NCBI GenBank assembly: GCA_013331945.1
Contig: DUFK01000027.1
Span: forward strand, 19,687 to 55,771
Length of the DNA: 36,085 bases
Source of the DNA: Nanobdellota archaeon
Lineage (GTDB): Archaea > Nanobdellota > Nanobdellia > Pacearchaeales > UBA12030
Reading direction: 5' to 3'
Position numbers and translations under genes: made by a program. The notes beneath the pieces were generated by a model that was not told the origin of the DNA, ran no database searches, and worked only from the letters and a program-made list of their open reading frames with translations. Below, one piece after another: positions 12,934 to 30,484 of this stretch. Every line of letters begins with the position of its first letter. Position 1 is the stretch's first letter.

Positions 12934-12934
12934 G

Positions 12935-15292: not shown

Positions 15293-16420
15293 ATGAAACT
15301 TAAGAGAAGATTTAAAGTCTTGATTGTCATCGGCCCCCGTCCAGAAGTCATAAAACTAGCACCCATCTTTTTAGAGTTTAGGAAACATAAGGAGCTCAAT
15401 ACAGAGATTCTCTTAACTGGGCAACACCGCCAGCTGACAGATCAGGCAATGAAAGATTTCGGATTGAAGGCCAAATATGACCTGAACCTGATGAAAAAGG
15501 GACAAGGCCTTGAAGAATTATCAGCCAGAATATTTCTGAAATTTGGCACGATTCTTAAAAGGATAAAGCCGGACTTAGTTATTGCAGAGGGTGATACAAC
15601 TACCACTGCCATCTGTTCCATCTGCTGCTACTACCAAAAAATACCATTCGCACACGTTGAGGCCGGTCTGAGGAGTTTCGATAAGTTTCAGCCATTTCCG
15701 GAAGAGATAAACCGGATGATTGCAGATATCATCGCGGACTTGCATTTTGCACCGACAAATGACGCCAGAGAAAACCTTATTGCCAGCGGAATTGACGGTA
15801 AAGGCATATTTGTGACAGGTAATACTGTTATTGATAGCTTGCTTTTATTATCTAAAAAAAACCATAAATTCCGTGATACTAACCTAAACTCCATAAAAGA
15901 AGGAAAGCCCCTAATACTGGTAACAATGCATAGAAGAGAAAGCTTTGGCAGGCCAATAAAAGAAGTCATAGCAGCTTTGAAAGAGTTAAATAAGGAGGAT
16001 GTCCAAATAGTTTACCCTGTTCATTTAAATCCTAATGTTAAAGGCCCCGTATACAAATCTCTTTCTGGTTGCAAGAACATCATCCTTACAGACCCTCTTA
16101 ACTACTTAGATTTTATTAACCTGATGAAAAAATGCTCTTTTATACTCACTGACTCGGGCGGAGTCCAGGAAGAAGCCCCGACCTTTGGGAAGCCAATATT
16201 AGTTCTAAGGAATGTGACCGAAAGACCGGAAGGCGTAAAAGCTGGAATAGCCAAGTTGGTTGGCACGAATAGAAGAAAAATATTGAGGTTCAGCAATCTG
16301 CTTCTAAACAACAAAAAATTCTACTCCAGTATGGCCAAAAAAAAGGGCCTTTATGGTGCAGGGGATGCATCAAAGAAGATAGTGAAAATCGTAAAAACCA
16401 GATTCCTGAATTCAAATTAG
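15293..16420 (+). CDS. wecB: UDP-N-acetylglucosamine 2-epimerase (non-hydrolysing)
   Basis: IGPRPEVIKLAPI, HVEAGLRSFDKFQPFPEEINR, DSGGVQEEAPTFGKPILVLR. Confidence 0.9.
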   Translation: MKLKRRFKVLIVIGPRPEVIKLAPIFLEFRKHKELNTEILLTGQHRQLTDQAMKDFGLKAKYDLNLMKKGQGLEELSARIFLKFGTILKRIKPDLVIAEGDTTTTAICSICCYYQKIPFAHVEAGLRSFDKFQPFPEEINRMIADIIADLHFAPTNDARENLIASGIDGKGIFVTGNTVIDSLLLLSKKNHKFRDTNLNSIKEGKPLILVTMHRRESFGRPIKEVIAALKELNKEDVQIVYPVHLNPNVKGPVYKSLSGCKNIILTDPLNYLDFINLMKKCSFILTDSGGVQEEAPTFGKPILVLRNVTERPEGVKAGIAKLVGTNRRKILRFSNLLLNNKKFYSSMAKKKGLYGAGDASKKIVKIVKTRFLNSN

Positions 16421-17370
16421 ACTCTTTCTCTCCAATAATTGAGCAGGTCTCTAAGAGTCACATCGAACGGAATCTCCGGTTTCCACCCGGTTTTTTCTCT
16501 AAATTTAGTACAATCTCCAAGTAAAAGCGGGACATCGCTTGGCCTTAATCTATTCTCTTCTTGTTTTACCTCTATATTGGCATTGCTCATCTGTAAGAGC
16601 ATATTTAACATCTCATCAATCCTCCACGCCTTTCCAGCGCAAATGTTGTAAATTTCTCCATAATCACATTTCTCCACAGATAGCAAGTACGCCCTTACAA
16701 TATCTCTCACATCCGTCCAATCTCTTTTTGCCTCTAAACTACCAACATGAATTACGGGCTCTTTCTTTCCTTTCTCAATCTCTGCTATTTGCTTTGCAAA
16801 ATTTGATGTCGCAAAAACTTCTCCCCTTCTCGGCCCAGTGTGATTGAACGCCCTTGTAACAACTGTCTTTAGCCCGTAAGAATGATGATACTGCCTTGAA
16901 AGATTGTCTTGTGCTATCTTGCTGACTGCATAGGGGGATAAAGGTCTTAGAGGATTCGTCTCTTTTATAGGCACTTCATCTTCTTTAACTAGTCCATACT
17001 CCTCACTGCTTCCTGCCACTTGTATTATGGGATTAAGGTTGAGTTGCCTTACTGCTTCAAGGATGTTCAGATTTCCAACGATGTTCGTTGTTAATGTTTC
17101 TTCCGGAGCTGTAAAACTGTGTTGAACAAAGCTCTGTGATGCGAGGTGAAATATATAATCCGGCTCTATGGCCTTGATAGTCTTTCTAATAGAATTCGAA
17201 TCTCTGATATCTGCTTCATGGACCTTGACTTTGTCTTTTATGTGCACAATATTCTCATTTCTGCTTCTTGGCCTTTCGATACCATGCACTTCAAGCCCTT
17301 TTTCTAGCAGTAGCTCTGCAAGATGACTTCCGACGAAGCCAGTTATTCCGGTTATGAGCGCTCTTTTCAT
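16417..17370 (-). CDS. gmd: GDP-mannose 4,6-dehydratase family SDR (Gmd; Rmd-type reductase not excluded)
   Basis: MKRALITGITGFVGSHLAELLLEKGLEVHGI is colinear with the E. coli Gmd N-terminus. Also GSSEEYG, SPYAVSKIA (YxxxK), AFNHTGPRRGE, RDWTDVRD, GWKPEI. I start it at the ATG at 17370; the 37 extra residues in the ORF-track version (to 17481) precede the Rossmann fold and look like translated spacer. Confidence 0.8.
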   Translation of the reverse strand: MKRALITGITGFVGSHLAELLLEKGLEVHGIERPRSRNENIVHIKDKVKVHEADIRDSNSIRKTIKAIEPDYIFHLASQSFVQHSFTAPEETLTTNIVGNLNILEAVRQLNLNPIIQVAGSSEEYGLVKEDEVPIKETNPLRPLSPYAVSKIAQDNLSRQYHHSYGLKTVVTRAFNHTGPRRGEVFATSNFAKQIAEIEKGKKEPVIHVGSLEAKRDWTDVRDIVRAYLLSVEKCDYGEIYNICAGKAWRIDEMLNMLLQMSNANIEVKQEENRLRPSDVPLLLGDCTKFREKTGWKPEIPFDVTLRDLLNYWRERV

Positions 17371-17475
17371 TTTGTTTTTATTTCCAGACGCAGAATGAAC
17401 GCGTTCCTCCCCGCATAAACTTTTCCTTCGGCATTTGTTTGTGCACCTTTTCTCCACCTCTAAAGCGGAAGGAAA

Positions 17476-17495
17476 CCACACACTTTAGTGTGCGG
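17476..17495 (-). other. Stem-loop in the 154-bp spacer between the ColD-like gene and gmd
   Basis: The minus strand reads CCGCACAC-TAAA-GTGTGTGG, an 8-bp stem (one G-U pair) with a 4-nt loop, followed by TTTCCTTCCGCTTT. Possible attenuator, terminator or processing site. Confidence 0.3.
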
Positions 17496-17524
17496 AGGAT
17501 GTCATCCTTAAGTTCCAAACAATT

Positions 17525-18745
17525 TTAAACCTTTCCCAAAATCTCCCCAAAGGCCCCTATAACATAATCCAGGTCCTCTTGCGTCAAGTATTGATGACAA
17601 CCAATGTATAACGCATGTGCTCCAAGATATTCTGCGTTAGGAATCTTTCCTTCATACTCTTTTCTTAGATAAGAATAAACCGGCTGATGGAGCGGAATTG
17701 CCCCGAATAATGGCCTTGTTTCAATCCCCCTCGTCACAAGCTCCTCCCTCAACTTCTTTCTTGAGATCTTTGATTGGTCTTTTATAACAAAAGGATAGCC
17801 AAGGAAGCTTACATCTTCATTGTAAGTTGGCAGTTTCAGTATGTCAGAGAATTTTTCCATCCCCTCATTCAAGTATTTGACGTTTTCGAGCCTTCTCTTT
17901 ATTATCCAGTCGGCCTTCTTAATCTGCTCAACAGCTAGCGCAGCCTGAATCTCAGTTGTCTTGAAATTATATCCAGGAATGTCGTGATAGTACCGGGGAT
18001 GCTGGTCTATCTCGTGCTCTGTGTTATGGAATTTCTCCTTCTTCATAACAGCTTCTTCTTGTCCCTCTCTATCCCATGCTCTTCCATGCGCCTTTACCTT
18101 GTCGATAAACCTGACAAGTTCTAAATCATCAGTTGTCACAGCCCCGAGCTCACCGACCTGTATATTATGGGCGATAAAGAAAGAGAAGACACCAAAATCC
18201 GACAACGATCCGGTTCTTTTACCATTATATTTCGTACCATGAGCCTCGCATGAATCTTCTATGACTGCAAGCCCATATTTTTTTGCAATACTATTTATCT
18301 TATTCATATCGCAAGGGTACCCCATTAAATGCACTGGCATTATGGCCGAATAATCATCTACGTCCGCCTTCTCTAGGTATTCTTTTAAGCTTTCCGCGTT
18401 CAAGCTGAAGTCATCCATATTCACATCGACAAAGGCCGGCTGGTAATTTGTGAGCTTGATGGAATTTACAGTCGCAATAAAAGTTAGTGGAGAGGTTATG
18501 ACTTTAGACCATTCATTTGCCTTTGGGAAATGTTCACAATGCTTCATAGCTTCCAGTCCGGCAATGATTGCGGAGGTTCCAGAATTCATGGCTATACAAT
18601 ACTTTGTCCCAACATATCTTGCCCAGTCTGATTCAAACTGCTTTACTTGCGGACCTTCTGACAGCCAATTAGAATCCAGCACCCGGTTTATAGCAGATTT
18701 TTCAGCTTCACTAATTTTAACATCTCCAACTCTGACGTCTCTCAT
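17525..18745 (-). CDS. DegT/DnrJ/EryC1-family enzyme with His replacing the PLP lysine: ColD/E1-type NDP-4-keto-6-deoxyhexose 3-dehydratase candidate
   Basis: Family motifs LSEGPQVKQFE, AMNSGTSA, IEDSCEAHG, and FSFFIAHNIQVGELG, where aminotransferases have FSFxxxKxxxxGEGG. The His codon is CAT at 18167..18169. The ColD-like insertion AHGRAW...PGYNF is present. I prefer the ATG at 18745; the ORF-track start at 18796 is a TTG inside the promoter region. Confidence 0.7.
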   Translation of the reverse strand: MRDVRVGDVKISEAEKSAINRVLDSNWLSEGPQVKQFESDWARYVGTKYCIAMNSGTSAIIAGLEAMKHCEHFPKANEWSKVITSPLTFIATVNSIKLTNYQPAFVDVNMDDFSLNAESLKEYLEKADVDDYSAIMPVHLMGYPCDMNKINSIAKKYGLAVIEDSCEAHGTKYNGKRTGSLSDFGVFSFFIAHNIQVGELGAVTTDDLELVRFIDKVKAHGRAWDREGQEEAVMKKEKFHNTEHEIDQHPRYYHDIPGYNFKTTEIQAALAVEQIKKADWIIKRRLENVKYLNEGMEKFSDILKLPTYNEDVSFLGYPFVIKDQSKISRKKLREELVTRGIETRPLFGAIPLHQPVYSYLRKEYEGKIPNAEYLGAHALYIGCHQYLTQEDLDYVIGAFGEILGKV

Positions 18746-18794
18746 TTTTATATCCTTCTCTAAGAATTTATTAAAAAGGATAACTCTAGAAAAC

Positions 18795-18808
18795 AATTTA
18801 AAGGTTTC
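18795..18808 (-). promoter_or_regulatory. BRE/TATA-like box in the 78-bp divergent region between the ColD-like gene (-) and the GT9 gene (+)
   Basis: The minus strand reads GAAACCTTTAAATT, the same motif class as upstream of aglB. The same A/T core is centred about 25 nt upstream of the + strand ATG at 18824, so it may serve either or both directions. Confidence 0.4.
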
Positions 18809-18823
18809 TATTTTCCATTAAAA

Positions 18824-19891
18824 ATGGTTAAGTATAAACAACTCCTTAAGGGAATTCAGAGGAGAATTAGTTACTTGTTGTGGCTTGTTCTTGACCCAAG
18901 TAAATTTGTTAAAATCAAACACAAAAAGATAAAAAGGATTCTCGTAATCAATCTCGGATTTATAGGGGACCTGCTAGCTACAACACCTATGATATCTTCT
19001 CTGAAGAATAAATTCGATGTAGATATATCTGTGCTGGTAAATCATCAGATGGGGGAAGTTTTGCTTGGGAACAAAGATGTATCTCAAGTGATTACTTACA
19101 AAGGGAAGTTCTCAGATGACTTGGAGAGCCTAAGGCGAGAAAATTTCGACCTGGCTGTTATCGTATGGCCAGGCTCCCTGAAAGTTTCGCTTCTGTGCCT
19201 TCTTGCCAGAATCCCTTATAGGATAGGTACTACACAAACAGGTCTATTGGAGGGTAAGGGATATTTCCTGACTAGAAAGGTTTGGCCTTCGCTGATGGAA
19301 AAGCACAAGGTCCTGGAAAATTTGGATATCGCCGCTCTTGTAGGGGCAGAAACCAAGAATCCGTGTGTGGGCTTTTCCTTTTCGAAGGAAGATGAGAGAT
19401 TTGTTGAAAGATTCTTATTTAAGGAAAAGATTCGCGGGCCAATTGTGGTTATTCACGCAGGTAAAAGGGGGAAGTTCTATGTAGAATACTCATGGCCTCC
19501 GGAAAATTTTGCCAAGGTCGCAGATTTCTTGATTGATTCTTATGGAGCAAGCGTAATCCTCTCTGGCGGAAAAGGAGAAGAAGCGATAGCGGATAAAATC
19601 CGCAGCATGGTGCAGGAAAAGAACAAGAAGAGAGTACACATCGTCGCAGGAAAATTCAATCTTAGGCAGTTTGCGGCTCTCCTAAAAAGAAGCAAACTCT
19701 TGATAAGCATAGACACAGCAGCAGTTCATATCGCTTCAGCTTCTCATATAAAAGTACCCATGGTTATTCTGAATGTAAAGTATCCTGGAATCTGGCATCC
19801 TTATGTTCCAAGGAATAGGTATAAAATACTGAACAGGCCAACTATCCGCGGGGTCGAGGCGGCTGCCAGGGGTTTTTTAGACAAAAAATGA
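18824..19891 (+). CDS. GT9 family glycosyltransferase (LPS heptosyltransferase-like)
   Basis: N-terminal ILVINLGFIGDLLATTPMISSLK, IHAGKRG, GGKGEE, and the donor-site motif LLISIDTAAVHIASA. Confidence 0.75.
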   Translation: MVKYKQLLKGIQRRISYLLWLVLDPSKFVKIKHKKIKRILVINLGFIGDLLATTPMISSLKNKFDVDISVLVNHQMGEVLLGNKDVSQVITYKGKFSDDLESLRRENFDLAVIVWPGSLKVSLLCLLARIPYRIGTTQTGLLEGKGYFLTRKVWPSLMEKHKVLENLDIAALVGAETKNPCVGFSFSKEDERFVERFLFKEKIRGPIVVIHAGKRGKFYVEYSWPPENFAKVADFLIDSYGASVILSGGKGEEAIADKIRSMVQEKNKKRVHIVAGKFNLRQFAALLKRSKLLISIDTAAVHIASASHIKVPMVILNVKYPGIWHPYVPRNRYKILNRPTIRGVEAAARGFLDKK

Positions 19892-21030
19892 AAATAGTAT
19901 ATTTATGTGAATTCTCCGCAGGAGTGGATGGAGTCTGGAACAGGGTATACAACATAGCCAAGCATCTTGCCAAGCGGCATGAAGTTTTTGTGTTCTCTTC
20001 AGATATAATAAAAGGAAGCGAAGGAAAAGCGCCGGAATTTGAGATAAAGGATGGAATAAAGATCTATAGATTTCCTGTCTATTTCAGGCTCGGAGAGAAT
20101 GCTTTATGGTGGAATTATGAACCAAAGTTGCTCGAGATAAGGCCGGACATAGTCCACGCTCATGTTTTTCGGCATCCACACTCAACCTCTGCGCCAAAAG
20201 TTGCACGCAAGGTTGAAGCAAGAGTTTTCCTAACAACTCACGCGCCGTTTGTTGAGCACGAATTGCGAAGCAAGATCCTGAATTTTGCCGTCTCGTTGTA
20301 CGATCAAATACTTGCAAGAAAAGTTCTGAACTCTTATGAGAAAGTCATCGCTATAGCCAGATGGGAAATACCCAAGTTATTGGCTCTCGCTTGCAAAAAA
20401 GAGAAGATTGTCCATATACCGAATGGAATCCCAGAAGAATTTCTCAATCATACACCAAAGTTTTTGAGCAAGAAGAAAAAAACAGTCCTGTTTCTCGGCA
20501 GAATAGCTCCGATAAAGAATGTAGAACTTCTTTTACATGGGTTCAAGAATTTTCTTGATGCGAGAGGAGAGCTGGATAGAAATGGCGGCGGGGTGAGACT
20601 AAGACTAATTGGTCAGATGGAGAAAAGATACGACTCCATAATTTTAGGATTGATCAAGAAACTTGATCTTGAGGGGCATGTGGAACTGCCTGGCCCGATT
20701 TATGACTTGAAGAAGAAAATCCTTGAGGTGGAGAAAGCAGATATCTTTGTATTGACAAGCAAGAGAGAAGCCTCTCCACAAGCGCTTATCGAAGCCATGT
20801 CTCTTGGAAAGATAGTTCTGAGTTCAAATACCGCTGGTGCAAGGGAATTTATCCGAGATGGAGAGAACGGATTCATCTTCAAGGATCAGGAAGAATTTGA
20901 AAACAAACTCAGGTATGTTATAGGGAATTATTCAAAACTCTCTAAAATCTCCAAAAGTGCTAGGGAAAGCGTATCTAAACTGACTTGGGGAAGGCTCGCG
21001 GAGGAGGAAGAGAAGCTTTACAAAAAGTAA
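19888..21030 (+). CDS. GT4 (GT-B fold) glycosyltransferase
   Basis: REASPQALIEAMSLGKIVLSSNTAGAREFIRDGENGFIF (EX7E-type region). ATGA overlap with the upstream GT9 gene. Confidence 0.8.
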   Translation: MKIVYLCEFSAGVDGVWNRVYNIAKHLAKRHEVFVFSSDIIKGSEGKAPEFEIKDGIKIYRFPVYFRLGENALWWNYEPKLLEIRPDIVHAHVFRHPHSTSAPKVARKVEARVFLTTHAPFVEHELRSKILNFAVSLYDQILARKVLNSYEKVIAIARWEIPKLLALACKKEKIVHIPNGIPEEFLNHTPKFLSKKKKTVLFLGRIAPIKNVELLLHGFKNFLDARGELDRNGGGVRLRLIGQMEKRYDSIILGLIKKLDLEGHVELPGPIYDLKKKILEVEKADIFVLTSKREASPQALIEAMSLGKIVLSSNTAGAREFIRDGENGFIFKDQEEFENKLRYVIGNYSKLSKISKSARESVSKLTWGRLAEEEEKLYKK

Positions 21031-21047
21031 AAAGTCTTAAAAATATT
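21027..21047 (+). promoter_or_regulatory. Possible BRE/TATA-like box upstream of the GT9-GT2 fusion gene
   Basis: GTAAAAAGTCTTAAAAATATT lies about 40-45 nt upstream of the ATG at 21087. It resembles the aglB upstream box GAAAAGACTTTTAAATT. Confidence 0.3.
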
Positions 21048-21086
21048 GTTCTATTCAGCTTATCCAGCTCATTCGGCTCGTAGCTT

Positions 21087-23039
21087 ATGGGAATGAAAAC
21101 AAAAATATTACTAATAAAACTTGGCGCTCTTGGTGATGTCCTTAGGACGACTTCTCTTCTGCCAGCCATAAAAGACAAGTGGAAAGATTCTGAAGTCACC
21201 CTTGTTACAAAACAGGTGCAGGACATAATCCAATTCCTAGAAAATGTTCCCGGAATATTTAAGACGATATCCTCTGATTCCGACTCGATTGCACAGCTGG
21301 AGAAAGAGAAGTTCGACTTCGTCTTCAATCTAGATGAAGATGAAGAAGCTTGTTCTATCGCCTCGCGGATGAAATGTGGGGAGCTTAGAGGATTTTACTT
21401 CAAGGATGGAAGAATATCCTACACGAAATCCGCTAAAGAATGGTTTGACATGTCTGCCTTGGGGAAGAAAGAACCGAGAATCCGCGGCATGCCGCATAAC
21501 GATCATCTGAAGAAGAAAAATCGAAAGACTTACCAGCAGTTAATGTCCGAGATTATTGGTGTGAATCCTAGAAAATGTTCTCCCATCTATGTTTTAGATG
21601 AAGGCCAGAGGGCATTTGCAACTTCTTTTGTCAAGAGATACGACATTCAAACGAAGGATTTGATCGTGGGATTGAACACCGGCGCTGGTGGAAGATGGCC
21701 GGCGAAGAGCCTCAGCATCGAAAAGACCAGGAAGCTGATTGAAAAACTCCATTCTGTCCTTGGTGTAAAGATAATCTTGTTCGGGGGAAAGAGCGAGGCA
21801 GAAAGAAACAAAGAAATCCTCACAAAGTCCGGCGGGAAAGTTATAGATGCCGGCTGTGACAACACTCTTAAGGAATTTGCAGCATTAACAAGCCTTTGCC
21901 ACATCTTCGTGACTTCCGATTCTCTCGGGATGCATATCGCAATCTCACTCAAGAAGAAGGTTGTCGCATTCTTCGGTCCAACTTCTGCTTCAGAGATAGA
22001 ACTTTTCGGTCTTGACACGAAAATAATTTCCAAAAGCAGCTGTTATTGTTGTTACAAGCCAGATTGTAAAGCTGATAGAGAATACTCCCTAGAGGAAATA
22101 TTTTGGGCAACCAAAGGCCTCCTGGATTCCAGCCTCAAAGCCACCGCTACAATAATAGTAACTGCCTTCAAAGAGCCTCGTCTTGGGGAGACAATAAAAT
22201 CTATCCTTAAGCAAAAGATAGACTACGCTTATGAGCTCCTTGTAGTGGTCCCGGACAAGGAGTCTATAGGATTGGTTAAATCCTACTCTAAAAAATACAA
22301 ACAAGTTAAACTTTTCAAAGATCCTGGCAAGGGCAAGAGCTTTGCGTTAAACTTGCTCTTTAAGAAATTCAACAAAAAAGGCGGGGAGATCCTAATATTC
22401 ACCGATGGAGATGTAACCCTTGGAGAAAATTCAATCAACGAGATAATGCTTGCATTCCGCGATTCTTCTGTCGGCTGCGTCAGTGGCAGACCGGTATCTT
22501 CGAACAGCAAAAATAACAAATTCGGATTCTGGAGCCATCTTCTTACAGATGCGGGCGCGCATCAGATCAGGAAAGAGCTTGATACGCAGGGAGAATTTTT
22601 TGAATGCAGCGGATATCTATTTGGATTCAGGAATAATGGCCTCGTGGAGAAAATCCCATTAGACGTGGCAGAGGACGCGATAATCCCTTATTACTTCTGG
22701 AAAAAAGGGTATAGTATAAGATATGTTGACAGCGCTAGAGTGGTCGTAAAATATCCCGAAAATTTTGATGACTGGATAAAGCAGAGAAACAGGAGCGCTA
22801 AAGCACACGAATCACTGACGAAATACGCACCAGATTTCCCTAAGATAAAAAGCTTTAGGAACGAGGCCTCGCGGGTCTTTCAGGCAATTAAATATGCCAG
22901 GACACCGAAAGAGCTAAAATGGACTCTAGAGCTGATTTCCGCGCGCCTGTATATGTGGGGAAATGTCTTCTACGAAACACGTTTTAAGGGGAAGCATTAT
23001 CATGATGCCTGGGAGCGCATTGAATCAACAAAAGTTTAA
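21087..23039 (+). CDS. Bifunctional fusion: N-terminal GT9 (heptosyltransferase-like) plus C-terminal GT2 glycosyltransferase
   Basis: The GT9 part (about aa 1-345) has ILLIKLGALGDVLRTTSLLPAIK, LNTGAGGRWPAK, FVTSDSLGMHIAISL. The linker contains SCYCCYKPDC. The GT2 part (about aa 353-650) has TIIVTAFKEPRLGETIKSILKQ, FTDGDVTL (DxD), and VAEDAIIP. Confidence 0.75.
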   Translation: MGMKTKILLIKLGALGDVLRTTSLLPAIKDKWKDSEVTLVTKQVQDIIQFLENVPGIFKTISSDSDSIAQLEKEKFDFVFNLDEDEEACSIASRMKCGELRGFYFKDGRISYTKSAKEWFDMSALGKKEPRIRGMPHNDHLKKKNRKTYQQLMSEIIGVNPRKCSPIYVLDEGQRAFATSFVKRYDIQTKDLIVGLNTGAGGRWPAKSLSIEKTRKLIEKLHSVLGVKIILFGGKSEAERNKEILTKSGGKVIDAGCDNTLKEFAALTSLCHIFVTSDSLGMHIAISLKKKVVAFFGPTSASEIELFGLDTKIISKSSCYCCYKPDCKADREYSLEEIFWATKGLLDSSLKATATIIVTAFKEPRLGETIKSILKQKIDYAYELLVVVPDKESIGLVKSYSKKYKQVKLFKDPGKGKSFALNLLFKKFNKKGGEILIFTDGDVTLGENSINEIMLAFRDSSVGCVSGRPVSSNSKNNKFGFWSHLLTDAGAHQIRKELDTQGEFFECSGYLFGFRNNGLVEKIPLDVAEDAIIPYYFWKKGYSIRYVDSARVVVKYPENFDDWIKQRNRSAKAHESLTKYAPDFPKIKSFRNEASRVFQAIKYARTPKELKWTLELISARLYMWGNVFYETRFKGKHYHDAWERIESTKV

Positions 23040-23065
23040 AAGTATCCACGTCATTAATTAAAAAA

Positions 23066-24592
23066 ATGGAAGAAACAGAGAACCTGAAGGTAAATTGGGG
23101 GGTTATCGCTTTAGTGGTCGTGTTCCTACTCGCTGTAGCTGTAAGGCTTTACTTCTTCTCCGCATACAATAATCAGCCAGTATGGTGGGATGAGAGTGAG
23201 CATCTTGTGATGGCTAAACACATCGCATTTGAAACTCCGAAGACAGGATGGAATGAGTCAAGAGAAATTCTGCTTCCACTGATATTCTCATTTTTCTTTA
23301 AGATATTCAACAGCGAGGCAGCCGTCAGGTTCCTGCAGGTAATATTCTCCCTCCTCGCTGTTTTCTTAACTTATCTGGTCGGAAAAGAAATTTTTGACAG
23401 GAACATCGGCTTGATTGCTGCGCTTGGCATGGCTGTGTCCTCTGAATTGCTTTTTTGGACCTTCAGATTTGGATTAGAGCCGCTTGGCATAACTTTGTCT
23501 TTATCTACAATCTTATTTTTCTGGAAAGGGCACATCAAGAAAGGAAAGCCTTACTTTACAATACTTGCAGCAGTATTCGGAGCGTTGGCTTTCATGGCGA
23601 GCGCAAAAGAGGTCCTGATAATACTTGCAATTTTCTTCTCACTAATCCTCTCTGCTAACTTCAGGTTCCTGAAAGATAAAAAAATTTTAGTTGCCCTATT
23701 GATTGGATTTGTTCTCCTGACACCATATATGGCTTACTATAAAAGCGCTACTGGGAGCTTCCTTCCAAGAAGCACAGCAACAAGCGCAGCCCTAGGCGAA
23801 AGCCTTGCCAATAGTCAATGGAGTTGGGGAAATTTCTTATTCTTCATAAAATATATCCCCTCATACTTGCAACTTCCGTGGTTCATTCTATTCCTGATAG
23901 GATTAGTAATAGTTTTAATTAATCTGGTGCTTGGTCTGGATTTATCAATAAGGTCTAAAGATGAATCTTGGAAGGAGAGCGGAAAATATCTTCTCTTGGT
24001 ATTGTGGATACTGCTGCCTTTATTTTTCTTTAGTTATCCTCTCGGAATAGCTCCGGGGAACTACGGAGAGCCGAGATTTATGCTTGAGGCAATGCCAGCA
24101 ATCTTCTTTGTAATGGCGTTAGGATTGCAGAAAATACATGAATCCCTGGCAAAATATGGTAAAGGTATTGCGATAGCTTTCACAATTCTTGTGCTACTAC
24201 TCGGCGCTTTCTACCAGCTAAGACTTGCGGACGCATCACTTAAATCAAAGGAGACGTCATTCTTACAGGTCAAGCAGGCTGGCTTGTGGATTAAAGAGAA
24301 CTCCCAAGTGTCAGATTGGGTTATTGTGGCGAGCTCTCCACAAGTGACTTATTACTCTGAAAGGCAGACGCAGGGCCCTCCAGAATCAGAGGAAGAGTTT
24401 TTGAGATTTGTCCGTGAGAAGAAGCCGAAATTCATGGTGCTAAGTGCATTCGAACCACATCCTAACTGGTACTTAGAATGGCCAGCGTCTCATACTAGTG
24501 CTGTAAAACTCGTACAAGCTTACTCTGCTGGCCAGACAGGACAACAATCAGCAGTTCTTGTAATCTACGAGCTCACGAGCTACAGTCCTTAA
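23066..24592 (+). CDS. ArnT/PMT-like GT-C fold membrane glycosyltransferase (GT39/GT83-like)
   Basis: TM1 followed by VRLYFFSAYNNQPVWWDESEHLVMAKHI (acidic DE loop motif). About 11-12 further hydrophobic segments, then a roughly 120-aa soluble C-terminal domain. Confidence 0.7.
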   Translation: MEETENLKVNWGVIALVVVFLLAVAVRLYFFSAYNNQPVWWDESEHLVMAKHIAFETPKTGWNESREILLPLIFSFFFKIFNSEAAVRFLQVIFSLLAVFLTYLVGKEIFDRNIGLIAALGMAVSSELLFWTFRFGLEPLGITLSLSTILFFWKGHIKKGKPYFTILAAVFGALAFMASAKEVLIILAIFFSLILSANFRFLKDKKILVALLIGFVLLTPYMAYYKSATGSFLPRSTATSAALGESLANSQWSWGNFLFFIKYIPSYLQLPWFILFLIGLVIVLINLVLGLDLSIRSKDESWKESGKYLLLVLWILLPLFFFSYPLGIAPGNYGEPRFMLEAMPAIFFVMALGLQKIHESLAKYGKGIAIAFTILVLLLGAFYQLRLADASLKSKETSFLQVKQAGLWIKENSQVSDWVIVASSPQVTYYSERQTQGPPESEEEFLRFVREKKPKFMVLSAFEPHPNWYLEWPASHTSAVKLVQAYSAGQTGQQSAVLVIYELTSYSP

Positions 24593-24604
24593 TTTATTTA
24601 ACAA

Positions 24605-25162
24605 TCATTTGACCACACTCAGTTCATAATCTATGCCTGCAGCCGGAAACCAAAAGAAAAAGAATCTCTCATAAATTAAGGGAGAAGAATTTATCACTGG
24701 ATTAAATATAATGTTCAGAAGCTTATTCTGCGAAAATCCTATCCTTCTCTTCAGTATTCTAAACCTTGCCACACTGCCGAAATCTGTCCTGTAGCTGGCT
24801 TTCCTGGAGGGATTTACAGCATAATAATCAAAAGTTCTATAGCAAAAAACTCTCTTATGCGATGGGTCGGCAGCGTAGCTCCAGCTTACGTAGTATGGCG
24901 AATATACTTTAATCAAGGCTCCTGGCTTACTTATCCTCCAAATTTCACTTATCGCATCATTGAAGTTATCCAAATGCTCTAATATGTGGCTGCAGATTAT
25001 TTCACTGAAACTATTGTCTGGGAATGGCCACGGATACTTATCTAGGTTACACACAACATCAACTCCAGGTAGTTTAACAACATCTAGATTGGTATAGCCT
25101 TTTCTTATATCTGCTCCACAGCCTATATTCAATTTGTCGAACTTTGGTTTTTTGAAGTTCAT
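24605..25162 (-). CDS. Class I SAM-dependent methyltransferase (Methyltransf_11-like)
   Basis: LNIGCGADIRKGYTNLDV, IICSHILEHL, SKPGALIKV. It converges on the GT-C gene with only 12 bp between the stop codons. Confidence 0.75.
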   Translation of the reverse strand: MNFKKPKFDKLNIGCGADIRKGYTNLDVVKLPGVDVVCNLDKYPWPFPDNSFSEIICSHILEHLDNFNDAISEIWRISKPGALIKVYSPYYVSWSYAADPSHKRVFCYRTFDYYAVNPSRKASYRTDFGSVARFRILKRRIGFSQNKLLNIIFNPVINSSPLIYERFFFFWFPAAGIDYELSVVK

Positions 25163-26205
25163 TTTAACTCCTTATAGATTTTAAAGATTTGAGAAGCTGT
25201 TTTACTCCATGCAAACTTTTTTGCCCTTATTAAACCTTTCTTTATAAGTCCGGCAGACAATCTCTTATCGTTTAGGCTTTCAAAAACTTCCCTTTCCATC
25301 TCATTCACCTCGTATGGATTTACGATAATAGCGGCATTACCGACAACTTCTGGAAGTGACGCCGCATTGGATGTGATCACAGGTAATCCACAAGCCATGG
25401 CCTCTAGTGGAGGAATGCCAAACCCTTCAAATAGCGATGGGAATAACAATACATCGGCCGCGTTATACGCAGCAACCATCTCTTTTTCAGAGATCTTATA
25501 CAGATTAATTACACCACCATGGTCAATCCTCCCTTTTCCTATCCTGAGAAGAATGATATGATCCATCCTCTGCCTCAGCCTCAGAAATGCTTTGAACACT
25601 CTTAAGGTATTTTTTCTCTTATCATTGACTTCCCCTATATGCAGTATAACTCTTGCTTTATTTGGAATACCAAAGAATTTTCTCGCTCGCGCTTTGTTCA
25701 TTTTCTTAAAATTATTGGATACCCCCAGATAAACAACCTTTATTTTTTTTGGGCGTATCTTTAGGCAATCAACTAAATCATTTTTTGTATGCTCCGAGTC
25801 AGAAACAATAAAATCTGCCTTTTTTAATCCAGAATACAAATATCGTCTGGAAAATTTTTCTATAATGTTTTTTGGATAGAGGTAAGGGTATATGTCATGG
25901 CATGTAACAACATTCTTTCCCCACCTCTTTTTCCCCCCAATCAAAAATGACAAGTTTTGGTTTGTGAAATGATAGATGTCATATTTCTTTATTAATTTTG
26001 AGGCTCTTTTTAAAAATATCAGTTTATTGCTGGCATTTACTCTTCCAATCTTCTTCCCATTCACTTCGACACACCTATCATCGTAATTGAGAAATATATA
26101 GTCTACATTGCATAACTTACTCAATCCACGATGCAGCATAAATGCATATTTTCCTGCCCCCCAGTATTCTGGGATATTATTTATCAGTGCGATTCTCATC
26201 CTCAT
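25159..26205 (-). CDS. GT4 (GT-B fold) glycosyltransferase
   Basis: [43 protein letters not shown]. Overlaps both neighbouring genes. Confidence 0.85.
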
Positions 26206-27004
26206 ACGCCCTCCTATAGCCCTTTGTTTTTTTAGATAAAGTTAGGATTATTTCAGGTAAATTTTTTATCACTTCCAGCATCATTCGTGAGCTGCTCATC
26301 TCGCCCAATTTTTTTCTTGTGCCTCTTTTAAGGATTTGCCTGAGCATGTACCCGAGATCGTAATCTTCCATATGGAGTATGGGATTTGGAGTGAAAGCTA
26401 CCTTATATCCTGCCTTGCATATTCTTTGCTTCAGGTCAAAATCCTCTCCTGCGGGCTTGTCAAAATACTCATCAAAACCCTTGAACTTGTGGAATATATC
26501 TGCTTTGTAGGACATATTGTTTGTGAATCCGACAGGTACTTCTTCTCTTCCTATTATTGTCTTGTTTCTCATCTTATGGAGGCTTTTATTCTTTATAATT
26601 TCCAATGCTGAAAAGATATTGTTTTTCGATGGCTGTAATGGCCCGCCGATTCCGACAATCTCTGGAAATCTTCTATAGGTGCTGATTATGTTGCCAATCC
26701 ATTTTCTTGGTGCGACACAATCTGCATCGGTGAACGCAAATATCACTCCCCGCGCATTCCTAGCCCCTAGATTCCTTGCTGCCGCAGGACCTTTCCTGCT
26801 CTGCTTCAGGATTTTAACGCTCTTTTTCCACTTTCTGCTTCTTATGGCCTCTAGGGTGCCGTCTGTTGAGCCATCGTCTACTACTACTATTTCGAGTTTT
26901 CCAACATAATTCTGGGATTCTACACTCTTTATACAATTGATTAAAGAGCGTTTACTATTGTATGTAGCAATTATTACACTTACGAATGGGAGTTTGCCTA
27001 TCAT
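26177..27004 (-). CDS. GT2 glycosyltransferase
   Basis: VSVIIATYNSKRSL, VVVDDGSTDGT, FAFTDADCV (DxD). Confidence 0.85.
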   Translation of the reverse strand: MIGKLPFVSVIIATYNSKRSLINCIKSVESQNYVGKLEIVVVDDGSTDGTLEAIRSRKWKKSVKILKQSRKGPAAARNLGARNARGVIFAFTDADCVAPRKWIGNIISTYRRFPEIVGIGGPLQPSKNNIFSALEIIKNKSLHKMRNKTIIGREEVPVGFTNNMSYKADIFHKFKGFDEYFDKPAGEDFDLKQRICKAGYKVAFTPNPILHMEDYDLGYMLRQILKRGTRKKLGEMSSSRMMLEVIKNLPEIILTLSKKTKGYRRAYEDENRTDK

Positions 27005-28050
27005 CTTCTCTTAGTGATGCGATTTACAGCTTTAATTATCTCATTCGGAGAAACATCTTTTACTCTATACTTTTTGTAATCAGTCCTAATCCCGGATAGC
27101 TCCTCGATCGACTGCCTAAATGCCTTGTACGTTTCACCATTTCTGACAACTACATGTCTCCCGCCATATGGGGCCGTTCTCCTATAGTCTGTTGATAGGA
27201 AGATTGCAATTGTTGGAACTTTCATCGCAACTGCAATATGCATCAATCCAGAGTCATTCGATATAAACAGCTTGCATTTTCCGATAATGGTTGCGACCCT
27301 TCTTATATCAATATTCTTGACAATCGTTATTTTATTTTTTGCCCTTTTATTCACTAATCCTCTTATCCCCTCAAGATTCTTCTCATCCGGTCCCAAAAAG
27401 ATTAAAATTCGCGAACCCCCATTTATCTCTGCAATCCATTCAGAAACTTTTGCAAAGCTTTCGAGAGGCCATCTTTTTTCTATCATGCCTCTTTCGACAC
27501 TTGTCCCGGGGTGAATTCCTATGATAGTTCTCTCTTTGAAATTCCTAATAAATTCATCAGCAAATATTTTTTCTTTTGTGCTTGGCCATAACTCAAGTGC
27601 ATGCCCACCTCCAGTGTTTATACCAAGAGGTTTTATCAAATTCAAATTCTGCTCAACATCATGAGCAATTTTGAGGGGAATTCTTACATTTTGGAGAGAA
27701 ACTAGATTACTCTCGTAGTTATGAGTTATTTTTGTTTTAGCTCCAATCAACCAAGCTAAGACGTTATAATGCGGCTGCGCGGCCGGAATGGTAGTTATGC
27801 TAATATCATACCTCTCTTTTCTAAGTCTTCTAATCAATCCCAGATTCTGTAATATCCCACCCTGGATTTTTTTATTTATGAGATAGATATTATCTAAGTA
27901 AGGACACCCCCCCATTATCTCTAAAGAGCTCTTTAACCCAACAAGCAAATCAACCCTGGCCTTTGGATAAGCTTCCCTTAGCTTCTGTAGCACTGGGACT
28001 GCAAGTAATGTATTTCCTATACCTGGAATGGCTATGATTATTATTTTCAT
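27001..28050 (-). CDS. GT9 family glycosyltransferase (LPS heptosyltransferase-like)
   Basis: MKIIIIAIPGIGNTLLAVPVLQKLREAYP, IHPGTSVERG, LFISNDSGLMHIAVAM. I prefer the ATG at 28050: AAGGGT precedes it, and it lies about 38 nt from the TATA-like box, the same spacing as at aglB. The ORF-track alternative is 28068. Confidence 0.75.
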   Translation of the reverse strand: MKIIIIAIPGIGNTLLAVPVLQKLREAYPKARVDLLVGLKSSLEIMGGCPYLDNIYLINKKIQGGILQNLGLIRRLRKERYDISITTIPAAQPHYNVLAWLIGAKTKITHNYESNLVSLQNVRIPLKIAHDVEQNLNLIKPLGINTGGGHALELWPSTKEKIFADEFIRNFKERTIIGIHPGTSVERGMIEKRWPLESFAKVSEWIAEINGGSRILIFLGPDEKNLEGIRGLVNKRAKNKITIVKNIDIRRVATIIGKCKLFISNDSGLMHIAVAMKVPTIAIFLSTDYRRTAPYGGRHVVVRNGETYKAFRQSIEELSGIRTDYKKYRVKDVSPNEIIKAVNRITKRR

Positions 28051-28080
28051 CTTACCCTTGCCAATCATTAGTGCAGAAAA

Positions 28081-28098: not shown

Positions 28099-29037
28099 TT
28101 AAACTCTTCTCTTAATCTCATACACCCTATCGCGGGCCTTTGTAGCAGCAATCATCTCCCCTATGAGACCTAGAGAGATCAGCTGTAATCCAAGAATCAA
28201 GAGCAACATGCTCAAAATCGCCGCGGGAGTGTGCCCTCCGATAGTGCCTGTAAGGAGCCAGATAGCAAAGAGCCATGCTCCGATGATAAATCCGAGAAGG
28301 AAGCTCAGAATTCCAAATCCTCCAAAGAAATGGAATGGCCTCTTTGCGAAACTCGAGAGAAACTTCACCGTCAACAAATCAAAAAATCCTTTCCACATCC
28401 TGCTTAACCCATATTTGCTCCTCCCATAGAGGCGCGGAGCATGCCTTATCTTTATTTCAGAAACTTTATAACCCTTTACGTACGCAAGTGCCGGGAGATA
28501 GCGATGCATCTCACCATACAACTCGAGGTTCTTCGCAACCTCTTTCCGTAGGGCCTTGAATCCGCAATTAGCATCATGTATCCTCAATCCTGTGATGAAT
28601 CCAGATAGGCTGTTGAAAATCCGCGAGGCAAGTCTCTTAGTCGTCCGGTCTTCTCGATAATACCTCCATCCTACGACGACATCTGCATTCTTTATTGCAG
28701 CTAGAAATTTCGGGATCTCTTCTGGAATATCCTGCAAATCCCCATCCATCAGTATCAGGATTTCTCCCTTCGCTTCATCAAATCCGGCCTGCATCGCAGC
28801 GCTCTTGCCGAAGTTCCGGCTGAAGCACAAGAGCTTTACATTCTTATCTTTCCTACGCAGCTTTTCAATCTCCCTCGCAGTGCCATCTCTTGAGCCATCA
28901 TCTATGAAAAGCACTTCATAGCCTCCATCTTTCTTCACCGCGCCACTCTCCACACCTTTAAGAATTGGGTAAAGCCTTTCAAAAAGCGGAGCTATGTTTC
29001 TCTCTTCATTATACACTGGAATGATTACGCTTATCAT
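28099..29037 (-). CDS. GT2 polyprenyl/dolichyl-phosphate glycosyltransferase (Dpm1/GtrB/ArnC type with two C-terminal TM helices)
   Basis: ISVIIPVYNEERNI, FIDDGSRDGT, LILMDGDLQD. C-terminal hydrophobic helices FHFFGGFGILSFLLGFIIGAWLFAIWLL and AAILSMLLLILGLQLISLGLIGEMIA. Confidence 0.85.
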   Translation of the reverse strand: MISVIIPVYNEERNIAPLFERLYPILKGVESGAVKKDGGYEVLFIDDGSRDGTAREIEKLRRKDKNVKLLCFSRNFGKSAAMQAGFDEAKGEILILMDGDLQDIPEEIPKFLAAIKNADVVVGWRYYREDRTTKRLASRIFNSLSGFITGLRIHDANCGFKALRKEVAKNLELYGEMHRYLPALAYVKGYKVSEIKIRHAPRLYGRSKYGLSRMWKGFFDLLTVKFLSSFAKRPFHFFGGFGILSFLLGFIIGAWLFAIWLLTGTIGGHTPAAILSMLLLILGLQLISLGLIGEMIAATKARDRVYEIKRRV

Positions 29038-29069: not shown

Positions 29070-29549
29070 TCATAAACCTCTTTCGTAAACCACTGTTTTG
29101 ACCCCGGGAGGCCTTTTATCTGGATCTTCGTAAGCCTCTCTTAAAACAAAGCCGGTTTTCTGCATTATCCTCTCAACAGCTTTATTTCCTTCCCAGCTAT
29201 CCATGATTATTGTTTTGTATTGGTTATATCTCTCTTTCCCCTCCAGTATCAGAAAATCCAGTAGCGCAGATCCAATGCCATGCCCCTGATGTTCTGGAGA
29301 AACAGCATAAGTAGAGATCTCTACTTCCTTCTCCCTTGGTATAAGAGCACAACATCCAGCAACATTCCCCCCTTCATCGATTGCTAGTGCCCAAAGACCC
29401 GCTTTATATTTTGAATAAACTCTTTCTGCAATAGAGATAGCTCTAGAAGACAATGGTTTGATGAATGCTAAATCTATTTCAGGCCTACTGAGAAACCCAG
29501 TTAGTTTTTCTAAATCTCCCTCATTCGCGATAATATATGTCACTTTCAT
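29070..29549 (-). CDS. GNAT-family N-acetyltransferase
   Basis: Acetyl-CoA motif A HQGHGIGSALLDFL. 159 aa. ATGA overlap with the upstream epimerase gene. Confidence 0.8.
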   Translation of the reverse strand: MKVTYIIANEGDLEKLTGFLSRPEIDLAFIKPLSSRAISIAERVYSKYKAGLWALAIDEGGNVAGCCALIPREKEVEISTYAVSPEHQGHGIGSALLDFLILEGKERYNQYKTIIMDSWEGNKAVERIMQKTGFVLREAYEDPDKRPPGVKTVVYERGL

Positions 29550-30484
29550 TCTCCCAATCTCACTTTCAGAACATCTCTTACCCCATTAGAGATACTGTAT
29601 ATTGGCTTAAAGCCCAAAACCTTTATAGCCTTTTCCATATCTGCGGAGATATGCCTTACATCTCCCTTACGCGCAGCCTCAAATCTTGGCCCTGCGCCCC
29701 GCTCCGAGCCCTCTGCATCCTTGCCAAGCACATCACTTATAATCTCGTAAAGATCTAGAATGCTTGTGCTCTTGCCAGAACCTACATTGAAAACTCCGAT
29801 AAGCCCTTTCTTGAGCGCAAGAATATTTGCTCTTGCCACATCCCGCACATGCACAAAATCTCTTGTCTGTTTTCCATCCCCGAAGATTGTCACTTGCTTT
29901 CCCTGCTTAAGCGCAGAGATGAAATTTGGAACAACTGCCCCATATGCAGTATTCGAGGGCTGCCTCTTGCCATATACATTGAAATAGCGCAGACACACCG
30001 TTTCTATCCCATATAGCTGATTGAAAAGCTTGCAATACTGCTCTCCAATAAGTTTGCTTATCGCATAGGGAGATTTTGGATCCAGCTTGTCCTGTTCCCC
30101 GCATCTCTCCTTTTCACCATAAACAGCGCACGAAGAGGCAAAAATAACTTTCTTGATTCCAGAATCACGTGCAGCAAGCAAGACCTTGAGTGTGCCATCT
30201 ACATTTGCCTCATTCGTTTCCAGGGGATTCTCAACAGATTTTGCAACCTGGATGAGTGCAGCTTCGTGGAAAACTGCATCTGCATTCCTGAACTCTTTCT
30301 TCAGAAGCGAAAGGTTTCTTATGTCTCCCTTGACGAAACCGATCTTCTTCCACACATTTTTCAGATTCTCTTTTTTCCCTGCGGAAAGATTATCTATGAC
30401 TTTCACCTCTTCGCCCCGTGCGATGAGATCTTCAACAATATGTGAGCCAATAAATCCTGCTCCCCCAGTCACTATGGTCTTCAT
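29546..30484 (-). CDS. galE: UDP-hexose/UDP-HexNAc 4-epimerase (GalE/WbpP-like extended SDR)
   Basis: IVTGGAGFIGSHIVEDL, ASSCAVYG, SPYAISKLIGE (YxxxK), FGDGKQTRDFVHVRD. Confidence 0.7.
   Translation of the reverse strand: MKTIVTGGAGFIGSHIVEDLIARGEEVKVIDNLSAGKKENLKNVWKKIGFVKGDIRNLSLLKKEFRNADAVFHEAALIQVAKSVENPLETNEANVDGTLKVLLAARDSGIKKVIFASSCAVYGEKERCGEQDKLDPKSPYAISKLIGEQYCKLFNQLYGIETVCLRYFNVYGKRQPSNTAYGAVVPNFISALKQGKQVTIFGDGKQTRDFVHVRDVARANILALKKGLIGVFNVGSGKSTSILDLYEIISDVLGKDAEGSERGAGPRFEAARKGDVRHISADMEKAIKVLGFKPIYSISNGVRDVLKVRLGE

Follow-up and report, generated by a model that had tools for sequence, protein, structure and literature searches.

The glycan locus and its archaeal setting

The window analysed here is a stretch of 36,085 nucleotides from the genome of a Nanobdellota archaeon (assembly GCA_013331945.1, contig DUFK01000027.1, positions 19,687 to 55,771). 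It holds about 31 long open reading frames (ORFs), nearly all of them glycan-related, and three of these encode glycosyltransferases of family GT9, to which the heptosyltransferases WaaC, WaaF and WaaQ of bacterial lipopolysaccharide (LPS) synthesis also belong. We refer to them as GT9-1, GT9-2 and GT9-3. GT9-2 is the N-terminal half of a larger protein, in which a GT9 domain is joined to a GT2 domain (hereafter the GT9-GT2 fusion). The three genes are distributed over two convergent runs, one of which begins with the oligosaccharyltransferase gene aglB.

The plus-strand run has the order GT9-1, GT4, GT9-GT2 fusion, GT-C and converges on the AglB run. GT9-1 (18824-19891) is a stand-alone GT9 of 355 residues, recognised by Pfam PF01075 and by sequence matches to the solved structures 3tov and 1psw (WaaF). 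Its stop overlaps by four bases (19888-19891) the start of a gene for a GT4-family glycosyltransferase of GT-B type (19888-21030; Pfam Glycos_transf_1/Glyco_transf_4). The fusion, 650 residues long (21087-23039), was identified by Pfam, an AlphaFold2 (AF2) model, Foldseek and a PDB profile search. The run closes with a polytopic GT-C glycosyltransferase of the PMT_2/ArnT type (508 residues, 23066-24592; Pfam PMT_2, 59.9 bits). The GT4 and GT-C genes are the conserved upstream and downstream partners of the fusion.

The first gene of the minus-strand run encodes AglB, an oligosaccharyltransferase of the STT3 type (948 residues, 32683-35529; precomputed Pfam STT3; NCBIfam archaeo_STT3, 91.9 bits). 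It is followed by a flavoprotein of the geranylgeranyl-reductase family (31516-32649; NCBIfam GG-red-SF, 154.5 bits; Pfam FAD_binding_3 and GGR_cat), possibly a polyprenol or dolichol reductase, and by a PF00953 polyprenyl-phosphate N-acetylhexosamine (HexNAc)-1-phosphate transferase of the AglH/WecA/MraY superfamily (30518-31504; Pfam Glycos_transf_4, 113.6 bits), the predicted priming enzyme of a lipid-linked glycan. The run continues with a nucleoside diphosphate (NDP)-sugar 4-epimerase (29546-30484; Pfam), a GNAT acetyltransferase (29070-29549; Pfam) and a GT2 polyprenyl-phosphate glycosyltransferase with C-terminal membrane helices (28099-29037; Pfam), which has ArnC, PgfS and AglJ as its best NCBIfam models and probably makes a dolichol-phosphate-sugar. 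GT9-3 (27001-28068; Pfam PF01075, AF2, Foldseek) is a stand-alone GT9 of 355 residues, or of 349 if it starts at the internal Met at 28050, the form used in one public annotation. Downstream of it lie a GT2 glycosyltransferase (26177-27004; Pfam Glycos_transf_2, 100.9 bits), a GT4-family glycosyltransferase (25159-26205; Pfam), which overlaps the upstream GT2 gene, and finally an S-adenosylmethionine-dependent methyltransferase (24605-25162; Pfam Methyltransf_11), whose start overlaps the GT4 stop (25159-25162). From GT9-3 to the methyltransferase, all neighbours overlap by a few bases, and the four-base overlap between the GT9-3 stop and the start of the GT2 gene suggests translational coupling. 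As in an AglB-type cluster, AglB, the PF00953 priming transferase and the GT2, GT4 and GT9 genes share one strand with short or overlapping spacers.

Flanking sequence of the same genome was added on the left (~7 kb) and on the right (~10 kb), giving ~53 kb together with the window. The glycan locus goes on in the left flank, while the right flank carries housekeeping genes, namely those for SecY, prefoldin, an EMC3/YidC-like protein and a ribosomal protein. The locus proteins match exactly many Rifle groundwater metagenome contigs as well as contig DUHQ01000033.1 of GCA_013330725.1. The initial annotation of this DNA, made from the sequence alone, had taken the locus to be archaeal. This premise is sound, since AglB/STT3 is encoded in the locus and SecY, prefoldin and an EMC3/YidC-like protein in the flank, and since homologues that bear names are almost all from Nanoarchaeota, Woesearchaeota or Pacearchaeota. 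The window is archaeal, from the DPANN lineage (Woese-/Pacearchaeota). By Pfam, NCBIfam and gene calls, no gene for 3-deoxy-D-manno-octulosonic acid (Kdo), lipid A or Waa-type LPS synthesis was found in the window or its flanks.

GT9 membership, the GT9-GT2 fusion and donor-site residues

All three proteins score far above the 22-bit gathering score of PF01075 (Glyco_transf_9), with 80.8 bits for GT9-1 (E = 1.3e-22), 59.9 bits for the GT9 part of GT9-2 (E = 3e-16) and 108.6 bits for GT9-3 (E = 4e-31), which bears out the family assignment originally drawn from motifs. The motif pairs on which it was based (INLGFIGDLL and IDTAAVHIA, IKLGALGDVL and TSDSLGMHIA, IAIPGIGNTL and NDSGLMHIA) are all present in the translations and align with G12-D13 and with D261...H266 of WaaC. 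The coordinates first given hold for GT9-1; the second ORF runs to 23039 rather than ending near 22130, and the third lies on the minus strand, from 28068 or from the internal Met to 27001. Likewise, the description of the three as paralogues holds as far as the family goes, but their mutual identity is 22-26 %, no closer than to E. coli WaaC, WaaF and WaaQ. In a neighbour-joining tree they fall into three separate deep clades. The nearest NCBIfam models are those for heptosyltransferases I, II and III and for RfaQ, RfaF and RfaC. The view that GT9 is essentially the WaaC/F/Q family had to be given up, as many bacteria that lack classical LPS (e.g. Patescibacteria) and hundreds of DPANN archaea are among the closest homologues.

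Among solved structures, PDB 3TOV was the best match for all three by sequence, with E values in all of 5e-25 (GT9-3), 7e-22 and 3.5e-10; GT9-3 also matched WaaF (E = 4e-11). The AF2 models of GT9-3 (predicted local distance difference test, pLDDT, 94.2; predicted TM-score, pTM, 0.94) and of the fusion (pLDDT 90.9, pTM 0.90) show the expected GT-B architecture, and in Foldseek searches against the PDB, 3TOV, WaaF and WaaC ranked first for GT9-3 and for the N-terminal half of the fusion, with target-normalised TM-scores up to ~0.8. Taken together, sequence and models identify all three as deeply diverged, inverting GT9-family glycosyltransferases of the GT-B fold. The same Foldseek results place the chloroplast NDH subunit PnsB1 (PDB 9grx, 7wff, 7f9o) among the GT9 structures, as a close match in fold; plants appear to have recruited a GT9-fold protein as this structural subunit. 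That an archaeon encodes GT9 is less unusual than was initially held, and the proteins are already annotated as such: NCBI names them "glycosyltransferase family 9 protein" or "glycosyltransferase", and JGI "heptosyltransferase-2".

What the initial annotation had described as a plain second GT9 is the fusion. Residues 355-570 form a GT2 domain (Pfam Glyco_tranf_2_3, E = 1.3e-12; Glycos_transf_2, E = 5.5e-12), and the gene therefore ends at 23039. The GT9 domain spans about residues 1-345 (21087-22121) and the GT2 domain, of the cellulose-synthase/PcManGT type, about residues 352-650 (22140-23039). The GT2 motifs D440-x-D442, E529-D530 and Q566-x-x-R569 are invariant or nearly so, while the Trp of the QxxRW motif is absent (Q-R-N-R-S). 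In Foldseek the C-terminal half matched hyaluronan synthase (HAS), BcsA and PcManGT with E values of 5e-11 to 1e-9, and in the PDB profile search PcManGT (6YV7, E = 1e-7) and the dolichol-phosphate-mannose synthase of Pyrococcus (5MLZ, E = 1e-6). It combines the DxD, ED and Q-x-x-R motifs with the fold matches of cellulose-synthase-like membrane GT2 enzymes. Near the end of the GT9 domain, in a loop modelled with lower confidence, lies a near-invariant cysteine motif, C319-x-C321-C-Y-K-x-x-C327 (22041-22067), which could be a metal site.

To compare the donor sites, we aligned the proteins with E. coli K-12 WaaC, WaaF, WaaQ and WaaU (7 sequences) and in a larger set of 179 sequences. In WaaC (HepI), Asp13 is the catalytic base and has been called strictly conserved, K192, D261 and H266 form hydrogen bonds to heptose hydroxyls, and E222 binds the ribose (bioRxiv 10.1101/2021.06.16.448588). 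The position of D261 is occupied by D297 in GT9-1, D278 in the fusion and D272 in GT9-3, that of H266 by H302, H283 and H277, and that of E222 by E253, E237 and E229, respectively. Across the 179 sequences, D261 and H266 hardly vary in any of the three clades, and the E222 position holds Glu, with Asp in a minority. K192 corresponds to K198 in GT9-3 and to Tyr222 in GT9-1, in which K214, R215 and K217 lie in the same loop. In the fusion the position depends on the alignment, being G202/R203 in one and Lys in the other; because the 7- and 179-sequence sets differ in this way, we do not use K192 as a discriminator.

The base position is Asp in GT9-1 (D49) and in the fusion (D17) and Asn in GT9-3 (N19). 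Asn is found at this position in 94 of the 119 members of the GT9-3 clade, bacterial ones included, and among syntenic archaeal GT9-3-like genes both residues occur, Asn in loci L009, L010 and L014 and Asp in L013, L022, L034 and L069. Near its C-terminus, the GT9-3 clade consensus shows a C-x-P-C...C...C cysteine cluster that is missing from the window protein. GT9-1, for its part, has a clade-specific N-terminal extension of ~37 residues.

Conservation of the module and its linkage with heptose genes in relatives

Relatives were sought in one genome per GTDB species, and 80 loci, each reaching up to 10 kb to either side of the gene, were retrieved. A homologue search with the fusion gave 1575 matches, the best 120 of which are all full-length GT9+GT2 proteins with 44-81 % identity. 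Relatives of the fusion occur in 208 GTDB species genomes, almost all Nanoarchaeota, including the complete archaeon GW2011_AR20, and it is the most conserved of the three GT9 genes. GT9-1 has 26 homologues, mostly in DPANN, and GT9-3 sits within a large, mostly bacterial clade. The fusion is intact in 38 of the 80 loci; two further loci are contig-end fragments of one fusion, and one (L086) is a fragment with the GT9 part only. In the remaining 39, the GT2 half stands alone (~290 residues), with a separate GT9 nearby in seven of them. At L004:6779-8741 (ERZ28564294 scaffold_450) the gene calls split the fusion into two ORFs (547 and 119 residues), which is either a population frameshift variant or an assembly error.

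Gene order is widely kept as GT4, then the fusion (or GT2 half), then PMT_2 GT-C. In most related loci the gene immediately before the fusion or the stand-alone GT2 half encodes a GT4 homologue, and 36 of the 80 have a GT-C homologue, usually directly after the fusion or GT2 half. Although many contigs are short, 10 of the 80 loci have AglB within 10 kb and 14 have the priming transferase; in many of the relatives this PF00953 enzyme adjoins AglB. The closest relative (L094, 82 % identity) shows the same synteny on its contig.

We then searched 1.28 Mb of related archaeal loci with E. coli GmhA, GmhB, HldE and HldD and confirmed selected matches by NCBIfam. In L011 the fusion is followed by one agmatinase-like ORF and then by gmhA, gmhB, hldD and the kinase and adenylyltransferase domains of hldE, with NCBIfam scores of 196 bits for GmhA, 263 bits for the ADP-heptose 6-epimerase and 365 bits for the HldE kinase domain (cut-off 345). 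In L030 a full-length HldE (465 bits) separates the fusion from the GT-C gene, the priming transferase being a few kb and AglB 5 kb away. An HldE-kinase-like gene occupies the same place between fusion and GT-C in L010, and L034 and L077 encode GmhB together with both HldE domains. The linkage spans several sub-clades of the fusion, and in the clade next closest to the window (50-54 % identity) HldE-type genes stand beside the fusion in five of six loci (L009-L014).

Overall, HldE-type genes were found in 16 of the 47 loci that contain a GT9, against one of the 33 GT9-less loci, the latter being a contig-end fusion fragment (Fisher p = 7e-4). Genes of the HddA type, for GDP-heptose, showed the reverse distribution, with none in the 47 GT9-containing loci and 16 in the 33 others (Fisher p = 4e-8). 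GT9 enzymes use ADP-heptose, and the HldE/GT9 pattern agrees with this. The GT2-half-only loci of Nanoarchaeota (L047-L070) often encode a pathway of the GDP-heptose type. One of them, L055:1570-6783, contains an HddA-like kinase, two Gmd/LegB-like short-chain dehydrogenases/reductases (SDRs) and a GmhA-HddA-HddC-like triple fusion of 783 residues, an arrangement that suggests modified, possibly 6-deoxy, heptoses in these archaea. As a guide to the nucleotide specificity of the archaeal HldE adenylyltransferases, we also looked for the "STTR5" motif described in PMC11461863; its register was ambiguous in these sequences and no Arg was evident, and we draw no conclusion from it.

The genome of the window differs from these relatives in its readable part. 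We ran tblastn against the window and flanks (L001, L089-L091) with E. coli GmhA, GmhB, HldE and HldD and with DPANN GmhA, GmhB, HldD, HldE and HddA/HddC, and obtained only generic SDR epimerase matches; the outer ~7.5 kb of the right flank (L092/L093) were covered by gene calls and precomputed Pfam. The 4-epimerase of the minus-strand run (29546-30484) was considered as HldD and rejected, being TviC/GalE-like in NCBIfam, with 167 bits against heptose_epim (cut-off 274.6).

Outside the two runs, the window and its left flank are rich in other sugar genes: WecB, which exceeds its curated cut-off, three SDRs resembling NDP-sugar 4,6-dehydratases, a DegT aminotransferase, an Fcl-like synthase, an AsnB-type amidotransferase, several methyltransferases, two more PMT_2 GT-C enzymes and a split transketolase. 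The extended locus holds three PMT_2 GT-C genes in total (4782-6731 (+), 23066-24592 (+) and L089:14082-15611) and the ArnC/AglJ-like dolichol-phosphate-sugar synthase, which implies that glycosylation takes several steps on the membrane's outer face. A Gmd-like 4,6-dehydratase and an RfbH/PseC-like DegT aminotransferase or dehydratase (16417-18796 (-)) occur with the Fcl-like enzyme (934-1920 (-)), a set that suggests a pathway to a GDP-linked deoxy, dideoxy or amino sugar. The Gmd-like dehydratase is no canonical Gmd, scoring 216 bits against a cut-off of 415, and its homologues adjoin GmhA in other loci. The transketolase is encoded within the glycan locus as two separate, overlapping genes for its N- and C-terminal halves (2934-4624 (-)), directly upstream of a dTDP-glucose-dehydratase-like SDR, the Fcl-like GDP-fucose synthase and a GT2 (934-2947 (-)). 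It could supply sedoheptulose-7-phosphate or transfer two carbons to a keto-sugar; as a source of sedoheptulose-7-phosphate for heptose synthesis it was set aside, and we do not rely on it because none of the 80 related loci contains a counterpart. Finally, a protein of 395 residues (12920-14107 (+)), located between a methyltransferase and a GT4 gene, gave weak matches to squalene-hopene cyclase and pectate lyase (alpha/alpha-toroid); it is kept in L094 and is unusual for a glycan locus.

Proposed role and comparison with known systems

The reading that we favour, with a modest degree of confidence, is that the GT9 domains act at the cytoplasmic face of the membrane as heptosyltransferases on a dolichol-linked glycan, with ADP-glycero-manno-heptose as the likeliest donor, as it is for GT9 enzymes of bacteria. 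The PF00953 phosphotransferase would prime dolichol phosphate at the cytoplasmic face, the GT9, GT4 and GT2 enzymes would lengthen the lipid-linked oligosaccharide on the same side, and AglB would move the glycan onto protein. The ArnC/AglJ-like GT2 would make a dolichol-phosphate-sugar, from which the PMT_2 GT-C enzymes would add sugars at the outer face. For this organism we infer the lipid-linked acceptor, the order of the steps and the heptose donor.

The acceptor can hardly be Kdo2-lipid A, because the host is an archaeon without LPS. The initial proposal of another acceptor, probably dolichol-linked, is strengthened by the position of GT9-3 in a close-packed minus-strand run with AglB and the PF00953 transferase. 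As for the donor, the GT9 enzymes probably put heptose on surface glycans, because related archaea encode the ADP-heptose pathway beside them. The earlier suggestion that another donor might be used is therefore not the preferred one for the lineage, for which heptose is well supported. In this genome, heptose is only inferred as the donor, since no gmhA, gmhB, hldE or hddA homologue was found in ~53 kb of the genome.

Several further observations weigh against the proposed role. The contig of the closest relative showed no heptose genes either, by gene calls and precomputed Pfam, and the nucleotide-sugar genes of the window point instead to UDP-ManNAc, to 6-deoxy or amino hexoses and to a fucose-synthase-like enzyme. 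The best NCBIfam heptosyltransferase scores (93.3, 53.9 and 105.9 bits) all stay below the equivalog cut-offs, which range from 134.6 to 569. GT9-1 has no Lys aligned to K192, and GT9-3 has Asn19 where WaaC has its catalytic Asp13. The co-occurrence counts ignore phylogenetic kinship and cover 10 kb on each side.

Much of this would fit a GT9 scaffold that keeps the lipid-linked acceptor and is retargeted to a hexose, a HexNAc or a 6-deoxy or amino sugar made by the locus's own genes, an alternative that we regard as possible though rather unlikely. It would account for heptose-synthesis genes missing both from the ~53 kb and from the syntenic contig of the closest relative, for the wealth of other nucleotide-sugar enzymes, for the lost carboxylate of Asp13 in GT9-3 and for scores so far under the curated cut-offs; CAZy, moreover, lists a GlcNAc-transferase activity in GT9. 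What speaks for heptose nonetheless is the retention of the heptose contacts D261 and H266 (and K192 in GT9-3) and of the ribose-binding Glu, near-invariant across three clades, together with the HldE-type genes beside the fusion in most loci of the next-closest clade. Moreover, no heptose gene stands within 10 kb in 31 of the 47 loci that contain a GT9, so that their absence from a neighbourhood is weak evidence for absence from the genome.

The plus-strand module might also bypass AglB altogether and build a separate surface glycoconjugate, for instance a lipoglycan or glycolipid anchored in the membrane of the archaeon, or a secondary or O-linked decoration that GT-C adds outside the cell; we give this somewhat less credence still. 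The module is a separate transcription unit converging on the AglB run, its core of GT4, GT2 half and GT-C is kept in many genomes without AglB within 10 kb, and the GT2 half resembles membrane-embedded synthases as well as PcManGT. GT9 enzymes, as is established for WaaC and WaaF, classically act on an acceptor anchored in a membrane lipid. On the other hand, at least 14 of the 80 loci have AglB and/or the priming transferase within 10 kb although many contigs are truncated, GT9-3 is part of the AglB run itself, and PcManGT, to which the GT2 half is closest in sequence among solved structures, is deposited as a mannosyltransferase. Nor did we recognise a separate polymerase, ligase or flippase gene in the window. 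A bacterial origin of the genes, through a misassembled or misbinned contig or a very recent transfer of LPS genes that do not function in the archaeon, is extremely improbable. GT9-3 does sit inside a mostly bacterial clade (KSB1, Omnitrophota, Patescibacteria and others), and one homologue of the fusion is labelled "Paceibacterota bacterium". However, AglB, SecY, prefoldin and the EMC3/YidC-like gene lie on the same contigs, dozens of independent assemblies and the 208 Nanoarchaeota species genomes, complete GW2011_AR20 among them, show the arrangement again, the ORFs are intact and conserved at 44-82 % identity, and the window holds no Kdo or lipid A gene. On this archaeal context and recurrence, contamination was rejected, and the explanation is effectively refuted.

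Returning to heptosyl transfer onto a lipid-linked glycan, the adjacency of ADP-heptose genes to GT9, the GT9-GT2 fusion, GT-C and AglB in Nanoarchaeota suggests that heptose enters surface or N-linked glycans. More tentatively, and with a probability that we place below even, Woese-/Pacearchaeota could make heptose surface glycans in which the fusion and one or two further GT9s build a segment resembling the LPS inner core, either on a dolichol-linked glycan transferred by AglB or on one anchored in a membrane lipid.

What appears to be new here is the lineage-wide GT9-GT2 fusion module, its coupling to AglB and GT-C, the exclusive association with HldE-type genes and the large GT9 subfamily with Asn at the base position; searching the literature for heptosyltransferase or GT9 together with archaea, DPANN, Woesearchaeota or AglB, we found no paper on archaeal GT9 or on the fusion. 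The significance is bounded by the fact that the genes are already public as GT9 and that the readable part of this genome shows no heptose pathway. If the heptose-glycan reading is true, it supplies the missing biological use of archaeal ADP-heptose and marks a second major radiation of GT9 function outside LPS. For enzymology, the proteins offer three GT9 clades whose acceptors would be other than Kdo-lipid A, and one large clade that swaps the supposedly invariant Asp for Asn; this "G-N" subfamily, GT9-3 included, would then work without the canonical base. DPANN archaea, for the most part uncultivated episymbionts, make contact with the host through their cell surface. The glycan module is conserved and lineage-specific and is therefore a useful marker and experimental target for DPANN surface biology.

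Compared with E. coli WaaC (HepI), WaaF (HepII) and WaaQ (HepIII), the archaeal proteins share the Pfam family and the GT-B fold at 22-28 % identity. All three have the D-(S/T)-x-x-x-H donor motif and the ribose-binding Glu, whereas the N-terminal G-D motif is shared by GT9-1 and the fusion and GT9-3 has Asn in it. The two systems probably have in common an ADP-heptose donor, judging from gene linkage in the relatives, and an acceptor anchored in a membrane lipid at the cytoplasmic face. They differ in that the archaeal host lacks LPS and has an AglB N-glycosylation context, and in that one archaeal member is fused to a GT2. The closest solved GT9, 3TOV from Veillonella parvula, is bacterial and has Asp at the base position; it is silent on donor and acceptor, because the PDB entry states no function. 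For the C-terminal half of the fusion, the best solved relatives at the sequence level are archaeal membrane-associated GT2 enzymes, PcManGT of Pyrobaculum calidifontis (6YV7) and the dolichol-phosphate-mannose synthase of Pyrococcus furiosus (5MLZ). The matches cover ~110-170 residues of the catalytic core, and neither protein is joined to a GT9. PcManGT is reportedly an enzyme of N-glycan biosynthesis.

A commentary (PMC11461863) on Tang et al. (Science 2024) describes archaeal NDP-heptose biosynthetic enzymes as functional and calls the use of NDP-heptose outside bacteria open. The relatives of the window encode genes of the same classes, HldE-type and fused GmhA-HddA-HddC-type. In the relatives, unlike in the window, these genes adjoin GT9 and AglB, which suggests a use, and the GT9-HldE linkage is a concrete candidate for the one left open in that text. 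Finally, the N-glycan of Thermoplasma acidophilum contains heptose, as stated in a review (PMC11407970), which provides a precedent, from a different phylum, for heptose on an archaeal Asn-linked glycan.

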